A stretch of 64,000 nucleotides of DNA from Desulfobaccales bacterium (GTDB lineage: Bacteria; Desulfobacterota; Desulfobaccia; Desulfobaccales; 0-14-0-80-60-11): assembly GCA_049696835.1 (NCBI GenBank), contig JBAVUP010000161.1:8726-72725 (forward strand), read 5' to 3'. The position numbers and the translations under genes were made by a program. The stretch's first letter is position 1. Every line of letters begins with the position of its first letter. The notes beneath the pieces are model-generated. The model was not told where the DNA came from and did no database searches. It was given only the letters and a program-made list of their open reading frames with translations. This document shows positions 18,398 to 63,256 of the stretch, piece by piece.

Positions 18398-18506
18398 TCG
18401 TAGGGCGCGTCTTACGCGCCGACCATGACGGCCATGGGCCGCTGCCCAGACGAATTTTCAGGGCTCATCCAACCCCCGTGAGCTTGCCCCATTCCTGGTT
18501 TTGACT

Positions 18507-18535
18507 GAAACCTGAAACCTAAAACCTGAAACCTG
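18507..18535. repeat. Heptanucleotide array (GAAACCT)x4
   Basis: Sequence is gaaacct gaaacct aaaacct gaaacct g. It ends 2 nt before the stop of the minus-strand gene at 18538. Confidence 0.9.
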
Positions 18536-18537
18536 CC

Positions 18538-18933
18538 TCATTGGGTTCGACTCCAGGGCAGGCTCCCGGCGGGAACCCCCTCCGCTTCCGGGCGGTCCAC
18601 CGCCTGACGGTAGTCCCGCTTGCCGACGCCAACCAGGCGGTCACTCTTAAATACCAGGGGGGTGTAACCGCCCCGCACGGTGTTGCTTTCCTCGAAATCC
18701 ATGCTATGGGTCAGGTAGAAACAGATGGTGTAGTGGCCGCCCCGGTAATCGCCTTCTTCCTTGATCCCGGGCGGGCCCATGATGCCCAGCACTTCCGCCT
18801 CGGTCATCCCCGGCTTCACGTCATTGAGGTGGATATAGTTGGTCCACATGCTCTTTTCGAAGCGCTGATACAATACCCGGTCGCAGCCCGCGGTCAACAT
18901 CGTTATTACCAGTATCAGGTGTAACCAAGCCAT
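18538..18933 (-). CDS. Lipoprotein, BamE/SmpA-OmlA-like
   Basis: Signal peptide with lipobox LTAGC, plus a GMTEAEVLGIMGPPG motif typical of BamE-like proteins. Confidence 0.65.
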   Translation of the reverse strand: MAWLHLILVITMLTAGCDRVLYQRFEKSMWTNYIHLNDVKPGMTEAEVLGIMGPPGIKEEGDYRGGHYTICFYLTHSMDFEESNTVRGGYTPLVFKSDRLVGVGKRDYRQAVDRPEAEGVPAGSLPWSRTQ

Positions 18934-19091
18934 GTGTTTTCTCCCCCGCCCGCCGGGCTAACCACACTATAATACCCGCCGGCGCGCCCGTCAAGCCGGG
19001 GTCTACACTCCCAGGTCGGCATGCCGAGCCGATTATGTGCCTTGGTCCAACGCCAGCTTCTCTTGTTAAGTTTGAGTCCTCATCCCCATCT

Positions 19092-19217
19092 CCTGTTCCG
19101 AAAGGTCTTTCGTGCGTTCTACTCACCATCTGCTTTCGGCCGCGGCGGGCCTGGAGGCCCGCCCTACCGACTTTTCATAGTTTCGGGTGAGCCAAGGGCT
19201 CATGAATTACTGCTTGG
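19092..19217. repeat. ~135-nt structured dispersed repeat, copy 1 of 3
   Basis: Aligns with 36885-37016 and 63117-63256. Shared blocks are CCGAAA(A/G)GTCTTTCGT, GCTTTCGGC, GGCGGGC-loop-GCCCGCC, CCTAC(C)GACTTTTCAT and CATGA(A/T)TTACTGCTT. Confidence 0.85.
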
Positions 19218-19506
19218 AAACATCTGTTGTGGCCCAAGCTCTGCTTGGGCACCTTCATTCAGATTTCATGAATTCAATCACTTGCCCAACGAGATCGCCA
19301 AGCCGGAGCTTGGCCAATCCGTGGGGATGGTAAGCAATTTCTTGGACCCCGATACTGCCTTACGCCGACGCCATACCAACGGCCCCGGAAACCTTCCTAA
19401 AGTCTAGACTTCAACCCCGCAACCCCCATGCTTGCGACCCCAGGGCCAGACCCCGAGAACCCCGGTCACCCCCTCAACGCGCCGGTGCCCCCCCGGGGCT
19501 TCCCCC

Positions 19507-24065: not shown

Positions 24066-24190
24066 TTACAAAACTTTGTCAAATTATATCTGGGATGCAA
24101 CACTAGCTGAATCTTTTTGAACTGGCAGAGACAAGATGCGCAAGACCCCCATCTGGGAGCCCCCTTTCGCTCATCCCGGGTCTTGGCTAA

Positions 24191-24218
24191 AAGCTGAAAG
24201 CTGACTGCTGATAGCTGA
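24191..24218. repeat. Heptanucleotide array (NNGCTGA)x4
   Basis: Sequence is aagctga aagctga ctgctga tagctga. It ends 2 nt before the recJ stop codon, so the recJ mRNA carries (UCAGCNN)n right after its stop. Confidence 0.9.
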
Positions 24219-24220
24219 TT

Positions 24221-25940: not shown

Positions 25941-26078
25941 CAGTCGCCAGCTATCAGTGATCAGTAGGCAGTCTTGCGTAGGGTGCGTTTTACGCACCAT
26001 TATACTCGTTCCCAAGCTCCTGCTTGGGAACGATGAAATTTCAGCCCAAGCTCTGCTTGGGCACCTTATCGAGTAATT
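25941..26078. repeat. Composite: (CAGNNNN)x5 array + GTAG-REP hairpin + ~80-nt double-hairpin element (copy A)
   Basis: The array is cagtcgc cagctat cagtgat cagtagg cagtctt. It is followed by gtagGGTGCGttttaCGCACC. Then come GTTCCCAAGCtcctGCTTGGGAAC and GCCCAAGCtctGCTTGGGC. Confidence 0.85.
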
Positions 26079-26110: not shown

Positions 26111-26167
26111 ACTGCTCACCGCTTACTGCTTACTGCTCACTGCTCACTGCTTACTGCTCACCGCTCA
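26111..26167. repeat. Heptanucleotide array (ACYGCTY)x8
   Basis: Eight consecutive 7-nt units directly abut the TAG stop of the 26168..26884 gene. On its mRNA they read (U[GA]AGC[AG]G)n. Confidence 0.92.
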
Positions 26168-26884: not shown

Positions 26885-26929
26885 GGCACCCTCCGAGCTT
26901 CTAGTCTTAGTCGGATTAACTGGCTTTTT

Positions 26930-27030
26930 TTATACTCGTTCCCAAGCTGTGCTTGGGAACGAAAACTTTTCAGTCCAAGCTCTGCTTGGACACTTTATCG
27001 GTTAATTCTAGTGGGCAGTGCCCACCCTAC
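26930..27030. repeat. Double-hairpin element (copy B) + inverted REP hairpin
   Basis: Sequence is tatactcGTTCCCAAGCtgtGCTTGGGAACg...GTCCAAGCtctGCTTGGAC, followed by GTGGGCAgTGCCCACcctac. Confidence 0.85.
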
Positions 27031-27109
27031 ATTTATCTTCCGTCAGCTTTTGAAAGCTTAGAGCTGACCGCTTCCTTACCCCACCATAGCTTCCAGAGCA
27101 TCCAGATTT

Positions 27110-27189
27110 TTTATACTCGTTCCCAAGCTCCTGCTTGGGAACGACATTTTTCAGCCCAAGCTCTGCTTGGGCACCTTATCTAGTAATTT
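27110..27189. repeat. Double-hairpin element (copy C)
   Basis: Near-identical to 26000-26078: ttatactcgttcccaagctcctgcttgggaacga...cagcccaagctctgcttgggcaccttatc. Confidence 0.9.
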
Positions 27190-27252
27190 TCATGAGAACC
27201 CCCGGCAGGCATGGTCCACCGAAAAATTTTAACAACTTCAGAACGCGGTCTT

Positions 27253-27287
27253 TTCCTGAAAGCTAAAAGCTGACCTCTGACCGCTGC
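27253..27287. repeat. Heptanucleotide array (NNSCTRA-like)x5
   Basis: Sequence is ttcctga aagctaa aagctga cctctga ccgctgc. It ends 1 nt before the K+ channel stop codon. Confidence 0.85.
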
Positions 27288-27288
27288 C

Positions 27289-28281
27289 TTAACCCACCAT
27301 GGCTTCCAGGGCATCCAGATTTTTCCGCAGCCCCAGGGCGATGAGGGTGTCTCCCGCCAGAATGGGGGTCTCATGGCTGGGGTTGAAGAGCATGTCGCCG
27401 TCGGCCCGTTTAATCGCCACCAGGATGAGGTCCAGCTTTTGGCGGATTCCCGAGTCCTTGAGCGGCACTCCCAAGAGAGGCGAAGTCTGGCCCACCGCGA
27501 TCTCTTCCATGCTCCATTCCACCCCCTCCTTCATGGCCAGTTCCATGAAGGTTACCACCGTGGGATGGAGAATGGTGTGGGCCATTTTCTGCCCCCCCAT
27601 ATGATAGGGCGACTCTACCTTGTCGGCCCCGGCCCGCAGGAGTTTCTGTTCCGCACCCGGTTCTTCCCCCCGGGCCACGATGAAGAGCTGCGGGTTGAGG
27701 CTGCGGGCGGTTAGGACAATATAGACGTTGTCGGCGTCCGAGGCCACCACCGCCACCAGTCCCTTGGCCCGCTCGATCCCCGCCTCCAGCAGGACCTCAT
27801 CCCGGGTAGCGTCCCCCATGATGAAGTAATAACCTAGTTCCTCCAGCCGGGTGATTTGCTCCGGATTTTTATCGACGACCACCAGGGACAGGCCGCGGCC
27901 GGTGAGCTGCCGGGCGATGATTTCCCCGATGCGCCCGAAGCCGCAGATGATGTAATGATTTTTCAGGCTCTTGATATGTTTGATCAATTTGCGCTTTCCT
28001 AAGACCGCCCGCAGTTCTCCTTCGATCACCACCCGGGCCAGGGAGCCGACGATATAGAGCATGACCCCCATGCCGGCGAGGATCAGCACCATATTATAGA
28101 TGCGCCCCACGTGGTCCAGGGGGTGAACCTCCCCGTAGCCCACGGTGGTCAGGGTGGTCACCGTCATGTATAGGGCGTCAAAGAAATTCCAGCCTTCCAG
28201 CCAGACGAAACCCAGGCTGCCGCCCACCAGCAAGGCCACCAGGCAGGCGGTCCACTGGGCGATTTTACGGAAGGTTACCAT
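27289..28281 (-). CDS. Potassium channel with RCK/TrkA-N domain
   Basis: Two TM helices flank the selectivity filter TTVGYGE. A Rossmann-type RCK domain follows (IICGFGRIGEIIARQL). Confidence 0.9.
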   Translation of the reverse strand: MVTFRKIAQWTACLVALLVGGSLGFVWLEGWNFFDALYMTVTTLTTVGYGEVHPLDHVGRIYNMVLILAGMGVMLYIVGSLARVVIEGELRAVLGKRKLIKHIKSLKNHYIICGFGRIGEIIARQLTGRGLSLVVVDKNPEQITRLEELGYYFIMGDATRDEVLLEAGIERAKGLVAVVASDADNVYIVLTARSLNPQLFIVARGEEPGAEQKLLRAGADKVESPYHMGGQKMAHTILHPTVVTFMELAMKEGVEWSMEEIAVGQTSPLLGVPLKDSGIRQKLDLILVAIKRADGDMLFNPSHETPILAGDTLIALGLRKNLDALEAMVG

Positions 28282-32547: not shown

Positions 32548-32778
32548 GGTCGTGTGTGGTTGACTCCAGGCGCGGCCGGCATTTCCAACCCTTGGGTTTG
32601 GGAAAGCTACGCCCACCGGGGCTGTGTCCCACCTGCCGGCAACGCCGCCGCGAGACTCTTGCCGCTATATTATCATAAACATTTGTCAAGGTTCCCGAAA
32701 AGATTTATGATAACCGTGGAAACTGATGGCTATCCCGGTAATTTTCCAGGACTTCTCAAGCGCCAGGAGGTTGAGCGG

Positions 32779-33051
32779 ATGCAACGACGGATGCGGCTTG
32801 CCGGCATGGTGGTGGTGGCCACGCTGCTGATCATGGTGGGCAGCGGCTGTGCCTCCTCATCAACGGTGCAACAACCCCCGACCACCGGCTATATGCAGAG
32901 CGCCGTGGGCACGACGAACGAGTTGTCCCCCCTGGCGCCCCCGGGGGCCTGCAACCTGCATAAGGTCGGGAACCGTTGGACCTGCGAAGTGAACGGGCAG
33001 ACCATGGTCTATAATGACGCCTCCTCTCGTTGGGAACCCCAACCGAAGTGA
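32779..33051 (+). CDS. Small lipoprotein (90 aa), paralog of 33329..33637
   Basis: Trimmed from the track ORF to MQRRMRLAG... with lipobox GSGC. It shares QPPTT.YMQS.VGT.NELSPLAP...KVGN.W.C.VNGQTMV.ND.AS.WEP with the next gene. Confidence 0.7.
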   Translation: MQRRMRLAGMVVVATLLIMVGSGCASSSTVQQPPTTGYMQSAVGTTNELSPLAPPGACNLHKVGNRWTCEVNGQTMVYNDASSRWEPQPK

Positions 33052-33328
33052 CGCCTGGATACATAAGCCCGTTTGCGGTTTTCGGTAAAATAATGTAACA
33101 TATTCATAGGTTATCCCCTTTATAACAGGGGATTTAGCGGGTTTATGAAGCGGTGATCTCATCCCCCCTTATCCTCCCCTTGAAAAAAGGGGTGAGAAAC
33201 CCTACTTTTAAAGAAGAGCGGCATAGCCCCAGTCGGCTGGGTCATCAAGTACGGTGGACGCCAACCACCCCGGCTTTTGACTGGCCTGATGAGGTGCCGC
33301 GATTTTTTCAGGGAGGGAGGGTTAACCG

Positions 33329-33637
33329 ATGTCAGCTAAGATTAATTTTGCCGTGTTGGTGGTGGCCGCAACGACGTTGATCTTCGCGGGAAGTGGCTTG
33401 GCCGCCTCCCCGGGCCAATCATCCGGGGCGATCCGCGTCGAACAACCCCCGACCACCAGCTATATGCAAAGCCAGGTGGGGACGTCGAACGAGTTGTCCC
33501 CGCTGGCGCCCGCAGAGGCGAAAAACATGCGCAAGGTCGGCAATCAGTGGCTCTGCGACGTGAATGGGCAGACCATGGTTTTTAATGATGGCGCCTCTTG
33601 TTGGGAACCGCATCAGCAGGAAGGTCGGAAAAAATAA
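33329..33637 (+). CDS. Small secreted protein (102 aa), paralog of 32779..33051
   Basis: Has a signal peptide and the same conserved 60-aa core as the upstream gene. RBS is GGAGGGAGGG. Confidence 0.72.
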   Translation: MSAKINFAVLVVAATTLIFAGSGLAASPGQSSGAIRVEQPPTTSYMQSQVGTSNELSPLAPAEAKNMRKVGNQWLCDVNGQTMVFNDGASCWEPHQQEGRKK

Positions 33638-33851
33638 GGGGATGGCGCCTCACTTCCGTCTCTGCTAAAATTTAATAACTTTTGTTAGATTTGTCTCTGC
33701 CGACTACAGCCGGCGCGGGTGTGGCGCCTGTTGGTCTTATCAGAGAGAGCCTCAAAGGTATGCCCTCGCGGCGGGGGTAATCTCTTTATCCATGTATGAC
33801 TAATTTGCATGGCGACCGGGGATCGGGGGTCGCCGGGGGAGACCGTCAACC

Positions 33852-34490: not shown

Positions 34491-34590
34491 GTAGGGGCGG
34501 ACCTGCGTGTCCGCCCTTACAAATCCTCGTTCCCAAGCTCCTGCTTGGGAACGCTGATTTTTGGCACAAGCTCTGCTTGGGCACCTTAAT
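34491..34590. repeat. GTAG-REP hairpin + double-hairpin element (copy D)
   Basis: The REP hairpin is gtaggGGCGGACctgcgtGTCCGCCcttacaaa. It is followed by cGTTCCCAAGCtcctGCTTGGGAACg and a GCACAAGC/GCTTGGGC hairpin. Confidence 0.85.
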
Positions 34591-34603
34591 CCCTGGCTCT
34601 TTA

Positions 34604-34649
34604 CTGACAACTGACAACTGACAACTGACAACTGACAACTGGGTACTGG
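34604..34649. repeat. Heptanucleotide array (CTGACAA)x5 plus 2 degenerate units
   Basis: Five perfect units (ctgacaa) are followed by ctgggta ctggc. The array directly abuts the pirin TAG stop. Confidence 0.93.
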
Positions 34650-35564
34650 CTACTGACCACCGCTCTTAATAAACGTGCCCTGCCGATACTCCTCAAACGC
34701 CACCCTGAGTTCCTCCTCCGTATTCATCACAATGGGGCCGTACCACGCCACCGGCTCGCCGATAGGCTTGCCCGAGACCAGCAGAAACCTCACCGGCTCT
34801 GCCTCCGTGGACACCATGATCCGGTCGCCGTCGCCGAAGAGGGCCAGCATGCCGTTACTGACAAACGGCTCCCATTGCATATCGAAGTAGTTTCGCCCTT
34901 CCACCTCATGGGAAAAAGGCTTCTTCTCCTGGCAGAAGTACCCCTGGCCCCCGATGACATAGGCAAACACGGTGTGGCCCCGGACGGTGGGATGGGTGAA
35001 GGCCGTGCCCGCCGGCACCGTGACGTCCAGGTACTCCGGCTCGGTGACCACATCCTTGACCGGCCCGGTCACCTCCCCTACCCTGCCGGCAATAATCTTG
35101 AGGGTGACGCCCCCGGACAGTGCCACCTCCGGGATGTCCTGGGTTTCCACCCCCCGGTAGCGGGGCGCCATCATCTTCTGGGCCTTGGGCAGATTGGCCC
35201 ACAACTGCAACCCGTACATCACCCCTTGCGGGTCCCCTTTCGGCATTTCCTGGTGGATGATGCCGCGGCCCGCGGTCATCCATTGCACGTCCCCCGAGGA
35301 AATCACCCCCTTATTCCCCAGGCTGTCGCCGTGCTCCACGTCGCCCCGGAGCACGTAGGTGATGGTCTCGATGCCCCGGTGCGGGTGCCACGGGAAGCCC
35401 TTGACATAATCCTCGGGATTGGTCGACCGGAAATCGTCCAGCAGGAGAAACGGGTCGAACTGCGGCACCTCGGCAAACCCGAACACCCTGTTTAAATGCA
35501 CCCCTGCCCCCTCGAGGGTGGGTTTGGCCTTCAACACCTTGCGGATATTTCTGGTGGTGGTCAT
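34650..35564 (-). CDS. Pirin-family protein
   Basis: Bicupin with HPHRGIETITYVLRG..EH.DS.G. Confidence 0.9.
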   Translation of the reverse strand: MTTTRNIRKVLKAKPTLEGAGVHLNRVFGFAEVPQFDPFLLLDDFRSTNPEDYVKGFPWHPHRGIETITYVLRGDVEHGDSLGNKGVISSGDVQWMTAGRGIIHQEMPKGDPQGVMYGLQLWANLPKAQKMMAPRYRGVETQDIPEVALSGGVTLKIIAGRVGEVTGPVKDVVTEPEYLDVTVPAGTAFTHPTVRGHTVFAYVIGGQGYFCQEKKPFSHEVEGRNYFDMQWEPFVSNGMLALFGDGDRIMVSTEAEPVRFLLVSGKPIGEPVAWYGPIVMNTEEELRVAFEEYRQGTFIKSGGQ

Positions 35565-35755
35565 GGTGGCCCTCCATTGATTCTTTGCCAGCTCTTCTAA
35601 GAACTATAAGACCGACTATTCCAAAAATCAAAAACGTGAGATTTGCCATAAAAATTCGCCCGTAATGGCCAATAAAGCCCCAGAATTTACCTTTCCCAAT
35701 AATTTCTGGCTTTCTTCATATCCCCAATTTTTCCAAAAGACCCTCCTCCCTCCCC

Positions 35756-35784
35756 TTGTTTTTCCGAAAATGATGCTTATTTAT
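35756..35784 (+). promoter_or_regulatory. Sigma70-type promoter of ncRNA unit 1
   Basis: TTGTTT-N17-ATTTAT, positionally homologous to the stronger promoter of unit 2. Confidence 0.5.
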
Positions 35785-35790
35785 ATGTTT

Positions 35791-36150
35791 GCTAGGACGG
35801 TCAGTCTGAGCACCGCAAGGTTACGGGTTGACGGCCGTTCGGCTGCGCCCGAACGAGGGTAGGATCGCCCTCCGGACTGAACCTCACGGCAACCTGCTTT
35901 GGCCCTGAGCAGCAGGCCGGCCAATGATCCAAAGGTTTTAAGCATGGCCGGCGGGGCGCTGATAGCCGGAAGCGGCCATAGATGCCCGCTCCGCGGCCGA
36001 AGCAGTGAAGGCGACCACGGAACGTTCCGGACGTTTGTTCGGCGACTTCCTGCGTGGAGAATGAAAAAGGTTCCGTGATCTTGGGAAGCCGGGGAATCCC
36101 AGATGAATCCTCCTCCTGCTAAGGAGGTCTCTGGTTCCCCGGCTTTCTTC
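35791..36150 (+). ncRNA. Candidate structured ncRNA, unit 1 (~360 nt), class unknown
   Basis: Bounded by a promoter and by the terminator GCCGGGGAA...TTCCCCGGC+TTTCTTC (36088-36150). The 113-nt 5' core is nearly identical to unit 2. It has multiple GC hairpins and no credible ORF. Confidence 0.6.
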
Positions 36151-36230
36151 GTGCAGCCCCCTCGCCTACCTGCCCTCTGAGGGCCGGGTCTCAGCCACTT
36201 AAGATTTTGTTATAAAACTTCCCCACCCCC

Positions 36231-36259
36231 TTGATTTTCCGGGAAAGATGCGTTATAAT
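36231..36259 (+). promoter_or_regulatory. Sigma70-type promoter of ncRNA unit 2
   Basis: TTGATT-N17-TATAAT, with a consensus -10 hexamer. Confidence 0.6.
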
Positions 36260-36265
36260 ATATAC

Positions 36266-36623
36266 GCTAAGATGTTCAGTCTGAGCACCGGAAGGGTTAC
36301 GGGTGGACGGCCGTTCGGCTGCGCCCGAACGAGGGCAGGGTCGCCCTCCGGACTGAACCTCACGGCAACCTGCTTTGGCCCTGAGCAAAGGCGGCCATCG
36401 ACCCGCGGCAGCAAAGATGGCTCAGCCGGGTGCTGGAGCCGGAAAAGGCCCAACAGCCTGCTCCGCTGCCGAAGCAGCGAGGACACCGCGCAACCGTGCG
36501 GACCTGGCTCCGCCGAATCCTTCGGAGGAATGGATAACGGTTTCGTGGTCCTGGGGAGGCCGGGGCATTCAGGAGAGTCTCTTCGCAGAGCGGAGACGCC
36601 TGAATCCCCGGCTTTCTTTGTTT
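36266..36623 (+). ncRNA. Candidate structured ncRNA, unit 2 (~358 nt), paralog of unit 1
   Basis: Bounded by a promoter and by the terminator GCCGGGGCATTCAGG...CCTGAATCCCCGGC+TTTCTTTGTTT (36559-36623). It shares the 5' core (36275-36387) and the GCCGAAGCAG island with unit 1. Confidence 0.6.
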
Positions 36624-36884
36624 ACCCCCTATGTTCCTGTCTTCTGAGCATCCCAGGCGCGCCTAGGTCTGTTTCCTGGCTTCCGCCCCCAGCCTCAAAA
36701 TAGTGGTCATTGCTGTTATCTCTGCTGGCTATCTCCCTCGCCTCGCCTAAACTGAAATTGTGTGACGCCATCGCCTCAGAAAGCATTACCCCATGACGTA
36801 CGTTTCAAACTATTATTATGCCCGAGTGGCACAGGCTTCCAGCCTGTGAAAATTCCGGAGGACTTTTTTCCTCATTCCCAAGCT

Positions 36885-37016
36885 CCTGTTCCGAAAAGTC
36901 TTTCGTAGGGTGCGTTCTACGCACCATCTGCTTTCGGCAGCGGCGGGCACCGAGGCCCGTCCTACCGACTTTTCATAGTTTCGGGTGTTCCGAAGAAACA
37001 TGAATTACTGCTTTGG
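36885..37016. repeat. ~135-nt structured dispersed repeat, copy 2 of 3
   Basis: See 19092-19217. This copy includes GTAGGGTGCGTTCTACGCACC and the hairpin GTGTTCCGAAGAAACAT. Confidence 0.85.
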
Positions 37017-37179
37017 CGCCTTCGTCGTAAAAGCGGCACACCAGCGGCACAAAAAGGCGAAAAAAGGGGGACCCTAACGGCGGAAACCCGGGTATAATCA
37101 GAACCAGCGCGGCGCAAAAAAGGAACAAAGCATTGTCGCGGCACCCCCGACGGGCGCCCCCTTGCCCTGAGAGGTCACC

Positions 37180-38244
37180 ATGAAACGCCGAGAGTTTCTG
37201 CGGCAGATGACGCTGGCCCTGGCCGCGGCCTGGACCGCCGGCCGCCTCACCTGGCCCCAACCCGCTCAGGCCCAAGCCCCCGACCTGCGCCTGGCCCTGT
37301 TGGCCGACGCCCACCTCAAATCCGGGGATGACCGCCGCGCCGAGGCCCTCGCCCTGGCCCGGGCCGTGGCGGAAATCAAGGCCCTGACGCCCCCGCCCGA
37401 CCTGGTATGTTTCGCCGGCGATCTGGCCCACCAGGGCCGTCCCGACGCCCTGGACCTGGGGAGAGAAATCCTCTCGGACCTGCCCGCACCGCTGCTGGCC
37501 GTGCGGGGGGAAGGGGATCACGGCCCCAGGGAGTCCGCCTGGGGCCGGCGTTTCGGCGAGCCCCGCTTCTCCCGGCCTTACCGGGGCGCTCACCTCATCG
37601 GCCTGGACACCGTCCCGACGCCCACGCCCCATGGCCCGGTCTTCGAGATCGGCCCCGCCCAACGCCGCTGGCTGGCCGCGGCCCTGACGGGGTTGGACCC
37701 CGCCACGCCTCTGGTCATCCTATCCCACGCCCCCCTGGCCCGCCTCTTCCATCCCTGGCAGCAGTGGACCAATGATGCCCCGGAGCTCGCCCCACTGTTC
37801 TCCTCTTTCCATCGGGTTCTTTGCCTGTATGGACACGTGCATGGGGCAGGGGTCGGTAATGCAGGGGCCAGGGGTCAGGGGTCAGAGTTTATCGGCAAAA
37901 TCCCCCCTAGCCCCCTTTTAGCAAAGGGGGGAATGGCTATACCCTTCTTCCCAGGAACAGGGGAGTCTGAAAATCCCCCTTTGGCAAAGGGGGATTTAGG
38001 GGGATTTAAAGGGGCCTGGATTAATTTCAATGACGGCATTCTATTTCCCTGGGCCACAGAAAACAGCAAACAGAAAACAGAAAACCACATTTCATTACCC
38101 GCCACCGCCTGGCCCCGACCTCAGGCCGTCCAGGGCACCCCGGCGGTCCCGCGCCCCGGCCTGGGCCCCCACGGCTGCGGCTGGGCCTTGCTCACCTTAA
38201 GTTCCACGCAAGGAAATTTTCAGCCTTACCTGTGGCGGGCTTGA
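37180..38244 (+). CDS. Tat-signal metallophosphoesterase carrying an in-frame repeat insertion
   Basis: Twin-arginine leader MKRREFLRQM. Metallophosphoesterase motifs are LLADAHL, FAGDLAHQG, LSHAPL and LYGHVHG. About 80 low-complexity codons (37846-38085) follow the GHVH motif. Confidence 0.8.
   Translation: MKRREFLRQMTLALAAAWTAGRLTWPQPAQAQAPDLRLALLADAHLKSGDDRRAEALALARAVAEIKALTPPPDLVCFAGDLAHQGRPDALDLGREILSDLPAPLLAVRGEGDHGPRESAWGRRFGEPRFSRPYRGAHLIGLDTVPTPTPHGPVFEIGPAQRRWLAAALTGLDPATPLVILSHAPLARLFHPWQQWTNDAPELAPLFSSFHRVLCLYGHVHGAGVGNAGARGQGSEFIGKIPPSPLLAKGGMAIPFFPGTGESENPPLAKGDLGGFKGAWINFNDGILFPWATENSKQKTENHISLPATAWPRPQAVQGTPAVPRPGLGPHGCGWALLTLSSTQGNFQPYLWRA
37846..38085 (+). repeat. Composite intergenic-type repeat embedded in frame in the metallophosphoesterase CDS
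   Basis: Contains heptad arrays (aggggcc aggggtc aggggtc; cagaaaa cagcaaa cagaaaa cagaaaa). Also contains hairpin modules (ATCCCCCTTTGGCAAAGGGGGAT) of the same type as the intergenic repeats at 33110-33200. Confidence 0.75.
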
Positions 38245-38358: not shown

Positions 38359-38439
38359 TTATGGAAGGCTTTAAGTGTGAATTCTGAGGATTTAACAGAG
38401 GTGCCTTACCTGCGGGTCAACTTTCCCATGCTTCAGTCT

Positions 38440-38474
38440 TGGCTGAAAGCTGACCGCTGACTGCTGAGAGCTGC
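38440..38474. repeat. Heptanucleotide array (NNGCTGA)x5
   Basis: Sequence is tggctga aagctga ccgctga ctgctga gagctgc. It ends 4 nt before the hflX stop. Confidence 0.9.
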
Positions 38475-38478
38475 TTTG

Positions 38479-61585: not shown

Positions 61586-61702
61586 AAAGACTCCCCCCGG
61601 CGCATTACGGCTATCTCAGTATTAAACAGCTTATGTCGAAAAATAGAGAACAGGCTGGGATGATTACTCGTCTACAAAAATGCCATTATCTGAAGACAAG
61701 CA

Positions 61703-61882
61703 CGTAGGGCGGGAAAGCGTAGCGCATCCCGCCTTTAGCATCATTAGTTTCCGGCGGCGTTCCAGCAGCGTGACCGTGAAAAAGAACATGCCGCCAGGAA
61801 CAAAGGCGCGAATATATTGTAGCATAAATCAGGCCTGACCTGATTGCCGAAGGCGGGATGCGCTACGCTTTCCCGCCCTACG
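61703..61882. repeat. MITE-like element: perfect 33-bp terminal inverted repeats around a 114-bp spacer
   Basis: cGTAGGGCGGGAAAGCGTAGCGCATCCCGCCTT (61703-61735) is the exact reverse complement of AAGGCGGGATGCGCTACGCTTTCCCGCCCTACg (61850-61882). Confidence 0.85.
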
Positions 61883-62078
61883 CCCATATCTTTTGCTGCA
61901 AGATTACTACTATACATCAACGGTTTAAGCCCCAAGAAAAAATAGATGATATATTTTCATAAGCCGCCTGATGGGGAAAAAGCCTGGGCAGAAGGCAGGT
62001 GGTCATGTTGGCGCAAAGGCGAATTCCCCGACGCCCCCTCCTTATCAGAGAATATCTCATTTTCCTCCCCCAAAAACC

Positions 62079-63004: not shown

Positions 63005-63116
63005 GGGGAGGGTTTTTACCCTCATCCTGACCCTCTGGCTTGAAAAGGTTATCCGCACAGGCTGGAAAGCCTGTGCCACAGATAATAATTCTTTAGGGCT
63101 GAAGCGAAGGCTCATA

Positions 63117-63256
63117 TTCCGAAAAGTCTTTCGTGCGTCCTACGCACTAGGTACTTTCGGCAACGGCGGGCGAGACGCCAACGGCGGGCGAGACGCCCGC
63201 CCTACGAACTTTTCATGGTTTCGCGTGTTCCCAAGGAACATGATTTACTGCTTGTG
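63117..63256. repeat. ~135-nt structured dispersed repeat, copy 3 of 3 (with an internal 18-nt tandem duplication)
   Basis: See 19092-19217. This copy carries aacggcgggcgagacgcc twice and the hairpin GTGTTCCCAAGGAACAT. Confidence 0.85.

Follow-up and report, generated by a model that had tools for sequence, protein, structure and literature searches.

A tandem pair of units in a Desulfobaccales genome very likely represents a new family of structured non-coding RNA with a nearly invariant 5' domain

In a stretch of 64,000 nucleotides (nt) from a Desulfobaccales bacterium (contig JBAVUP010000161.1, positions 8,726 to 72,725; hereafter the window), a gap of 1.6 kb (35565-37179) separates a pirin gene from a metallophosphoesterase gene. 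What does this gap encode? A first reading, made from the letters alone (the sequence-only reading), had claimed that it lacks a credible open reading frame (ORF) and holds two head-to-tail copies of a candidate RNA gene of a new kind. Here we show that the gap contains two paralogous units, u1 and u2, each bounded by a promoter and a terminator, whose common fold is supported by covariation among relatives. We consider it very likely that they belong to a real and new family of structured non-coding RNA (ncRNA) genes, and we weigh below what kind of RNA this could be.

Alignment of 35740-36160 with 36215-36635 extended over about 420 nt, from promoter through terminator, thereby confirming the head-to-tail arrangement of two paralogous units, promoters included (Table 1). 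The sigma70-type promoters proposed for the two units held up: that of u2 was recovered by a consensus scan, and that of u1, read from the sequence, falls in those columns of the alignment where all homologues have their conserved promoter. The GC-rich stems with U-tracts that had been taken for terminators were present in the minimum free energy (MFE) folds of both units. A simple terminator scan called neither of them because their loops and stems exceed the limits of that scan. The MFE was -171.9 kcal/mol for u1 and -179.2 kcal/mol for u2, well below shuffled controls (z-scores in Table 1). The 5' end of u1 was placed from promoter spacing, and a transcript of about 355 nt would start near GCUAGGAC and end at the U-tract. 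The locus has the generic marks of a stand-alone, intrinsically terminated small RNA (sRNA) gene, namely a promoter, a 3' hairpin with U-tract and strand-specific structure, and we infer that each unit would be transcribed autonomously.

Table 1. Coordinates, in the window, of the two RNA units and of their parts
Feature	Position	Strand	Remarks
Promoter of u1	35756..35784	+	TTGTTT-N17-ATTTAT, with an A/T-rich tract and CCC before it; read from sequence
RNA unit 1 (u1), about 355 nt, mainstream paralogue	35796..36151	+	nhmmer E 4e-115; fold z -4.6
u1 5' domain (D1), four-way junction	35799..35882	+	P1 GGUCAGUCUG/CGGACUGAAC and hairpins P2-P4; consensus fold
u1 domain 2	35894..36005	+	P5 CUGCUUUGGC/GCCGAAGCAG and P6, around hairpins P7 (variable, covarying) and P8
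u1 domain 3	36013..36080	+	helix P9 GACCACGGAAC/GUUCCGUGAUC around a variable insert
u1 intrinsic terminator	36083..36150	+	long GC hairpin, then UUUCUUC; MFE fold
Promoter of u2	36231..36259	+	TTGATT-N17-TATAAT; consensus scan 10/12 matches; conserved in family alignment
RNA unit 2 (u2), about 352 nt, divergent paralogue	36272..36623	+	nhmmer E 7e-104; fold z -4.1
u2 5' four-way-junction domain	36274..36358	+	covariance model R1 105.1 bits
u2 domain 2 (P5-P8)	36370..36477	+	MFE and consensus folds
u2 domain 3	36485..36549	+	P9 ACCGCG..AACCG / CGGUU..CGUGGU
u2 intrinsic terminator	36553..36623	+	long hairpin, then UUUCUUUGUUU; MFE fold

Copies of the RNA were recognised with nhmmer profiles and with a 97-position covariance model (R1) of the 5' domain; loci of relatives carry L numbers below. 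About 30 full-length homologues were found, and their sources were all Desulfobaccales-like metagenome-assembled genomes (MAGs) or metagenome contigs. Contigs with pirin homologues (L001-L004) had one copy each, at the same position. When 185,579 species genomes were scanned with an exact pattern, full-length copies turned up at 8 loci, all in delta/Desulfobaccales-type MAGs (one of these loci is the same contig as L001), together with a 5' fragment at a contig end in a Treponema MAG and one chance match. A second pattern, which left the first helix (P1) free, yielded 14 full-length copies in metagenomes, of which one is truncated by the end of its contig, besides the partial copy L019 and 5 chance matches. 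Six copies (L035, L036, L038a, L038b, L039 and L040) were reached without any RNA pattern, through homologues of the phosphoesterase and pirin. Copies were present at two separate loci (L007 and L011) of the MAG MFD04408.bin.1.190. The pattern matches L010, L017, L020, L025, L027 and L031 were discarded as chance, as they were negative with the family profile and did not resemble the RNA outside the pattern. L013 (1-124, binned as Treponema) and L019 (633-855) have no more than the 5' part, which adjoins unrelated sequence and lies close to or at the break of a contig. Most probably both are chimeras that arose in assembly at the highly conserved 5' core, which strains and paralogues have in common. 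As the exact pattern hit only a few of the 185,579 species genomes, the family appears to be narrow in range and restricted to Desulfobaccales-like Thermodesulfobacteriota.

The same signals frame every copy. An A/T-rich tract, CCCTTGyTTTT (-35), a spacer of about 17 nt and TAtTATAT (-10) are kept upstream, GCTAGGAC stands a few bases ahead of helix P1, and the 3' end reads GAAGCCGGGG...CCCCGGCUU with a variable apex, followed by a U-rich run.

A consensus fold, obtained with RNAalifold on 24 sequences (helix P9 was extended by hand), consists of four domains in series, D1 to D4. D1, of about 85 nt, is a four-way junction formed by P1 of 10 bp and the hairpins P2-P4. D2 is a three-way-junction domain, with P5 (CUGCUUUGGC/GCCGAAGCAG) and P6 and with hairpins P7 and P8 inside; D3 is helix P9 (GGCCACGR/YCGUGGCC), which encloses a variable insert, and D4 is the terminator. 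Standard pairs made up 96.1% of 1766 pair cells, as compared to 33-51% when the 3' partners were slid by 1-3 columns. Pairs with changes on both sides numbered 13 against a shuffled mean of 7.0, and none of 500 shuffles reached 13. Such double changes lay mainly in P7 (6 of its 7 pairs), P8, P9 and P5. The P8 pair 178/183, for instance, changed from GC to AU in 7 sequences, and the P9 pair 231/292 was AU in 9, GC in 6 and GU in 6 sequences.

Comparison of u1 with u2 revealed 10 double changes. The hairpins at 35916-35952 and 36393-36422, which had been described as equivalent, are both helix P7 and differ by compensatory changes, and the island that had been seen at about 205 nt, GCCGAAGCAG, is indeed conserved and forms the 3' strand of the helix with CUGCUUUGGC. 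Together with the covariation in the family, the double changes between the two units bear out the structure-preserving divergence that had been ascribed to a duplicated RNA gene. Model R1 scored 105.1 bits (u2) and 97.2 bits (u1) on the plus strand as against 12 and 6.9 bits on the minus strand, and G-U pairs are frequent; the plus strand is therefore the transcribed strand. A helix that appeared in the MFE fold of the window sequence only, UCACGG/CCGUGA (UCACGGCAACC/GGUUCCGUGA), was rejected, as it is not kept in the sequences of group B (one of two synteny groups, see below) and the family supports P9, GGCCACG/CGUGGCC, instead. An all-against-all scan of column covariation for extra helices, pseudoknots or long-range contacts returned only noise runs of 3 bp.

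We then asked whether the RNA belongs to a known family. Searching the whole window with cmscan at gathering thresholds against Rfam 15 (4227 models, among them RNase P, tmRNA, SRP, 6S, riboswitches, ribozymes and OLE/ROOL/GOLLD/raiA/HEARO) returned only three tRNAs, all elsewhere in the window. A permissive scan of 35500-37250 (E<=10) gave matches at chance level only (E 4-8, 12-18 bits, compared to thresholds of 34-86). Under neither threshold, then, did an Rfam family contradict the claimed novelty. ARAGORN placed three tRNAs elsewhere in the window and called no tRNA or tmRNA at the locus. The layout of D1 does recall the tRNA cloverleaf, with a closing stem and three hairpins, the last of which abuts the closing stem with zero nt in between; unlike in tRNA, the closing stem is of 10 bp, the 'D' loop measures only 4-5 nt and a variable tetraloop caps the middle arm. 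D1 also lacks a T-loop motif, an anticodon loop and CCA, and no Rfam model calls it tRNA or tmRNA. 6S RNA is a rod of about 180 nt whose large central bubble mimics an open promoter; here, neither a rod (the consensus fold being one of four separate domains) nor a match to a 6S model was found. The literature on ncRNA in Desulfobaccales, Desulfobacca and Desulfobacterota, including the genome surveys of the Breaker laboratory, yielded nothing on this locus. With no relative among the 4227 Rfam models and no literature found, the RNA is new at the level of the family; the general class, that of stand-alone structured bacterial ncRNA, is already familiar.

Could the units instead be no functional RNA genes at all, but a duplicated intergenic repeat, the remnant of a mobile element or a small-protein gene? 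The intergenic regions of the window are rich in repeats resembling repetitive extragenic palindromes (REP) or miniature inverted-repeat transposable elements (MITE), one of them, at 36860-37013, in the very same gap, and a 151-amino acid (aa) ORF (36248-36703, +) spans the whole of u2, with its start inside the u2 promoter. This ORF was rejected as a gene: it has no Pfam match, is absent from u1, and its frame is broken by a 1-nt indel in L004 and L038b. It appears to be a spurious ORF of GC-rich DNA, which an annotation pipeline might call a hypothetical protein. The statement that the 1.6-kb gap has no credible ORF is thus to be amended in that an ORF of this length does exist, and kept in that the ORF is spurious. 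Across homologues no ORF is conserved in position or frame; the ORFs differ in position, frame and strand, some members (L012 and L023 among them) have almost none, and indels of 1-2 nt occur throughout the alignments. Checked on these alignments, the coding alternative met with paired-site covariation and no conserved ORF. As to repeats, the core pattern occurs exactly twice in the window, where 0 occurrences are expected by chance, and the covariance model of the 5' domain found two copies at 105 and 97 bits in the 64 kb, the next best match scoring 14.6 bits. True REP-like families in the window have 3-6 copies each. The 5' core, present in just two tandem copies in the 64 kb, is therefore not a dispersed repeat. 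Of the contents of the gap, the two units stand as described, whereas the segment 36860-37013 is a dispersed REP/MITE-like repeat that lies outside the RNA. Given also the fixed syntenic position, the conserved promoter and terminator and the compensatory base-pair changes, we regard a non-functional origin of the units as hardly credible.

The two units do not diverge evenly along their length. Recounting of the first ~113 nt gave 4 substitutions and 1 indel, in agreement with the earlier count, and the rest is far more diverged. In the family, too, the 5' 124 alignment columns of u1 are 71-92% identical to other members, with 73-86% for the 5' domain, and the rest 51-78%. Across 29 sequences the sequence of D1 is nearly invariant, stems included; where it varies, it does so in the loops of hairpins P2-P4, in the J3/4 joiner and, by one-sided changes among G-U, A-U and G-C, in its pairs. 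Because both pattern scans demanded exact matches within D1, the sample of homologues is biased. The core is nevertheless also present in the six copies that were reached by way of flanking genes, where GGUUACGGG and GAGCACC (GGGCACC in L036) are unchanged. The loops of P2 are GNRA-like (GCAA, GGAAA, GGNAA).

The paralogy can be followed in two relatives. L038, the closest by phosphoesterase identity (88%), has the same tandem pair, and L004 has the u2 type only. In its 3' part u1 is 96% identical to L038a, 78% to L001 and 60% to u2, while u2 is 97% identical to L004 and L038b, and the 3' part of the u2 type is at most 66% identical to every other member. In the 5' part, u1 and u2 are 92% identical, as compared to 86% between u1 and its orthologue in L001, which points to either concerted evolution or a stronger constraint on the 5' part. 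On these comparisons, u2 is a lineage-specific, fast-diverging paralogue that has retained the fold.

Tandem paralogues with a conserved 5' part and divergent 3' parts, each with its own promoter and terminator, bring to mind a pair of trans-acting base-pairing sRNAs of the OmrA/OmrB kind, in which the shared 5' region would be the seed and the 3' parts would serve stability and termination. OmrA/OmrB, PrrF1/F2 and AbcR1/2 are likewise two adjacent genes on the same strand with a promoter and terminator each, and in the OmrA/OmrB type the copies differ little at one end and have diverged elsewhere. They are RNAs of 80-150 nt, dependent on Hfq, with an unstructured conserved seed. In contrast, the RNA described here is of about 355 nt, three to four times the typical length of a seed-type sRNA, and bears no sequence or Rfam relationship to the OmrA/OmrB type. 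Its conserved part is locked in a stable, closed four-way junction without a free seed, where only joiners of 3-5 nt and variable loops are unpaired, and no long conserved single-stranded stretch that could act as an antisense seed was evident by eye anywhere in the alignments. An antisense pair is thus an unlikely explanation. Frozen stems, drifting loops and the want of a long conserved single strand are better accommodated by recognition of a specific partner than by antisense pairing.

A compact and extremely conserved junction could also be an aptamer. The RNA would then be a sensor, that is, a riboswitch-like aptamer or cis-acting leader whose junction binds a metabolite or ion and governs either read-through to the phosphoesterase gene or what becomes of the RNA; stand-alone ncRNAs that contain a riboswitch, such as EutX/Rli55, do exist. 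This possibility directs attention to the genes around the RNA. In the window, its flanks are ordinary chromosomal genes: pirin (34650-35564, -), divergent from u1, hisB, HflX and FBPase, and downstream of u2 a metallophosphoesterase with a twin-arginine translocation (Tat) signal (37180-38244, +). The best homologues of pirin and phosphoesterase come from MAGs labelled Desulfobaccales, Syntrophobacterales or Thermodesulfobacteriota. The RNA holds a fixed syntenic position in relatives, which form two groups. The order in group A is hisB/(pirin) - RNA - phosphoesterase - HflX. In most group-A loci the phosphoesterase gene follows on the same strand, at a distance of only about 50 nt in L016, L022 and L034, which speaks for a leader.

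However, TACAAT stands 7 nt before the phosphoesterase ATG in these ~50-nt gaps (L016 1000-1025; L022 1222-1250, - strand). It is a candidate -10 box and suggests that the phosphoesterase gene is transcribed from a promoter of its own into a leaderless mRNA. Moreover, a convergent gene of the major facilitator superfamily (MFS) lies directly after the RNA in L001-L003 and L023, and in group B the gene downstream, at about 600 nt, encodes an ADP-forming acetyl-CoA synthetase. For these three reasons the RNA was rejected as a leader of the phosphoesterase gene, and the RNA gene stands alone whatever gene lies downstream. A switch that pairs the 3' strand of P1 with a segment of domain 3 was also tried and rejected, since the one column pair that had seemed to covary proved no better than shuffled sequence. 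Thus the RNA does not look like a riboswitch or 5' leader, in that the class of downstream gene varies and alternative pairing is not above chance. About 200 nt of conserved structure lie between the junction and the terminator, with no antiterminator, and the stems of D1 do not covary as aptamer stems normally do. All this makes a sensor RNA quite improbable as an explanation.

Invariance that extends to the stems is typical of densely packed cores, and a catalytic or self-assembling ornate RNA, be it a ribozyme of a new kind or a multimer made of RNA only, as are ROOL, GOLLD and OLE, would account for it; the presence of several domains and the GNRA-like loops of P2 fit this as well. Like raiA, OLE, ROOL, GOLLD and HEARO, the RNA is a multi-domain, covariation-supported, GC-rich intergenic RNA of narrow phylogenetic range, confined as it is to Desulfobaccales-like MAGs. 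It shows no homology to any of these five, however, and is associated neither with mobile elements nor with partner genes; at about 355 nt it is also smaller than OLE, ROOL and GOLLD, and much smaller than the known ornate RNAs. No ribozyme family of Rfam matched, and the covariation scan returned no conserved pseudoknot or long-range contact. We therefore hold an ornate RNA to be a distant prospect. There is likewise only a slim chance that the frozen 85-nt junction is a new sensing or catalytic fold, that is, a metabolite or ion aptamer or a ribozyme core, within a stand-alone ligand-controlled RNA. If it were, u1 and u2 would be a single sensor joined to two unlike output domains, in an uncultured lineage of sulfate reducers.

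Taken as a whole, the locus is in our judgement best explained as a pair of tandem paralogous genes for an uncatalogued, independently transcribed structured ncRNA of about 355 nt that would act in trans; to this explanation in its entirety we give somewhat better than an even chance. Its working part would be the ~85-nt 5' four-way junction, the stems of which are almost frozen while the loops drift, and which may be recognised through its surface by a specific partner; the likeliest partner would be a protein or ribonucleoprotein (RNP). The 3' domains would be a more freely evolving scaffold or stability module, and paralogues such as u1 and u2, or the two loci of MFD04408.bin.1.190, would be differently tuned versions. 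As to mechanism, our best guess is that the RNA acts in trans and that its invariant 5' domain serves to bind a protein or RNP; we put this at well below even, and some probability stays with none of the readings weighed here.

Known protein-binding RNAs offer a parallel. 6S RNA, CsrB/RsmZ, Ms1 and bacterial Y RNA are also stand-alone RNAs with a near-consensus promoter and with paralogues within a genome, and have a conserved structured module for which recognition of a partner is a better explanation than antisense pairing. The RNA described here has neither the rod and central bubble of 6S RNA, nor repeated GGA loops, nor the Y-RNA stem beside rsr. Several points weigh against a partner-bound 5' domain. 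There is no protein gene that neighbours the RNA throughout the two synteny groups, and no candidate for the partner emerged. Invariance of the 5' stems could reflect tertiary packing of the kind seen in aptamers and ribozymes, or the small range of lineages sampled by scans that required exact matches in D1. D1 is, moreover, almost without double compensatory changes, its fold resting mainly on one-sided G-U/A-U/G-C changes.

Other features were observed around the locus and in the relatives. In group B, the interval from the RNA to the acetyl-CoA synthetase gene holds an ORF of 90-112 aa that is convergent with the RNA and has no Pfam match (L032 5225-5497, -; L014 6328-6645, +; L005 1125-1463, +; L018 80-352, +). 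Upstream of the RNA in L032 are genes for a LuxR-type response regulator and a sigma factor of the sigma-70 family (region 2 and region 4). In the window, dispersed REP/MITE-like repeats occupy intergenic positions 19090-19258, 25970-26078, 26926-27188, 34519-34590, 36860-37013 and 63111-63253 and include palindromes such as GTTCCCAAGCTCCTGCTTGGGAAC and GTAGGGTGCGTTCTACGCACC. Between u2 and the phosphoesterase gene, the window has some 350 nt (36713-37059) that are missing from L004, and the cluster at 36860-37013 is part of them. Units of 6-7 nt (CTGACAA, CTGAAAG and CTGCTTA types) form short tandem runs that are also intergenic (34597-34637, 38436-38476, 24180-24220, 27249-27289, 18498-18538 and 26115-26155), and two of them sit between the ends of convergent genes, hisB/pirin and phosphoesterase/HflX. 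A second tandem duplication, 78% identical in DNA, comprises 32870-33067 and 33441-33638 (ORFs 32554-33051, +, and 33329-33637, +); these paralogous small ORFs of ~90-100 aa have hydrophobic N-termini, one with a lipobox-like GSGC, and the gene pair was also called in L001-L003, L038 and L039, with one gene in L036. An inverted repeat at 61693-61892 has arms of 48 nt, 88% complementary and 104 nt apart.

To our knowledge, few structured bacterial RNAs of 300-400 nt have folds of several domains. RNase P, tmRNA, the still-orphan OLE, raiA, ROOL and GOLLD each opened new biology. The importance of the present family is limited by its narrow phylogenetic range; within that range, it marks the almost unstudied, uncultured order Desulfobaccales. 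Its pattern is unusual, in that a junction of 85 nt is frozen in sequence beside freely covarying domains, and the frozen junction offers an obvious starting point for pulling down partners or solving a structure. The u1/u2 pair, with the same 5' module and 3' parts only 60% identical, amounts to a natural domain swap.

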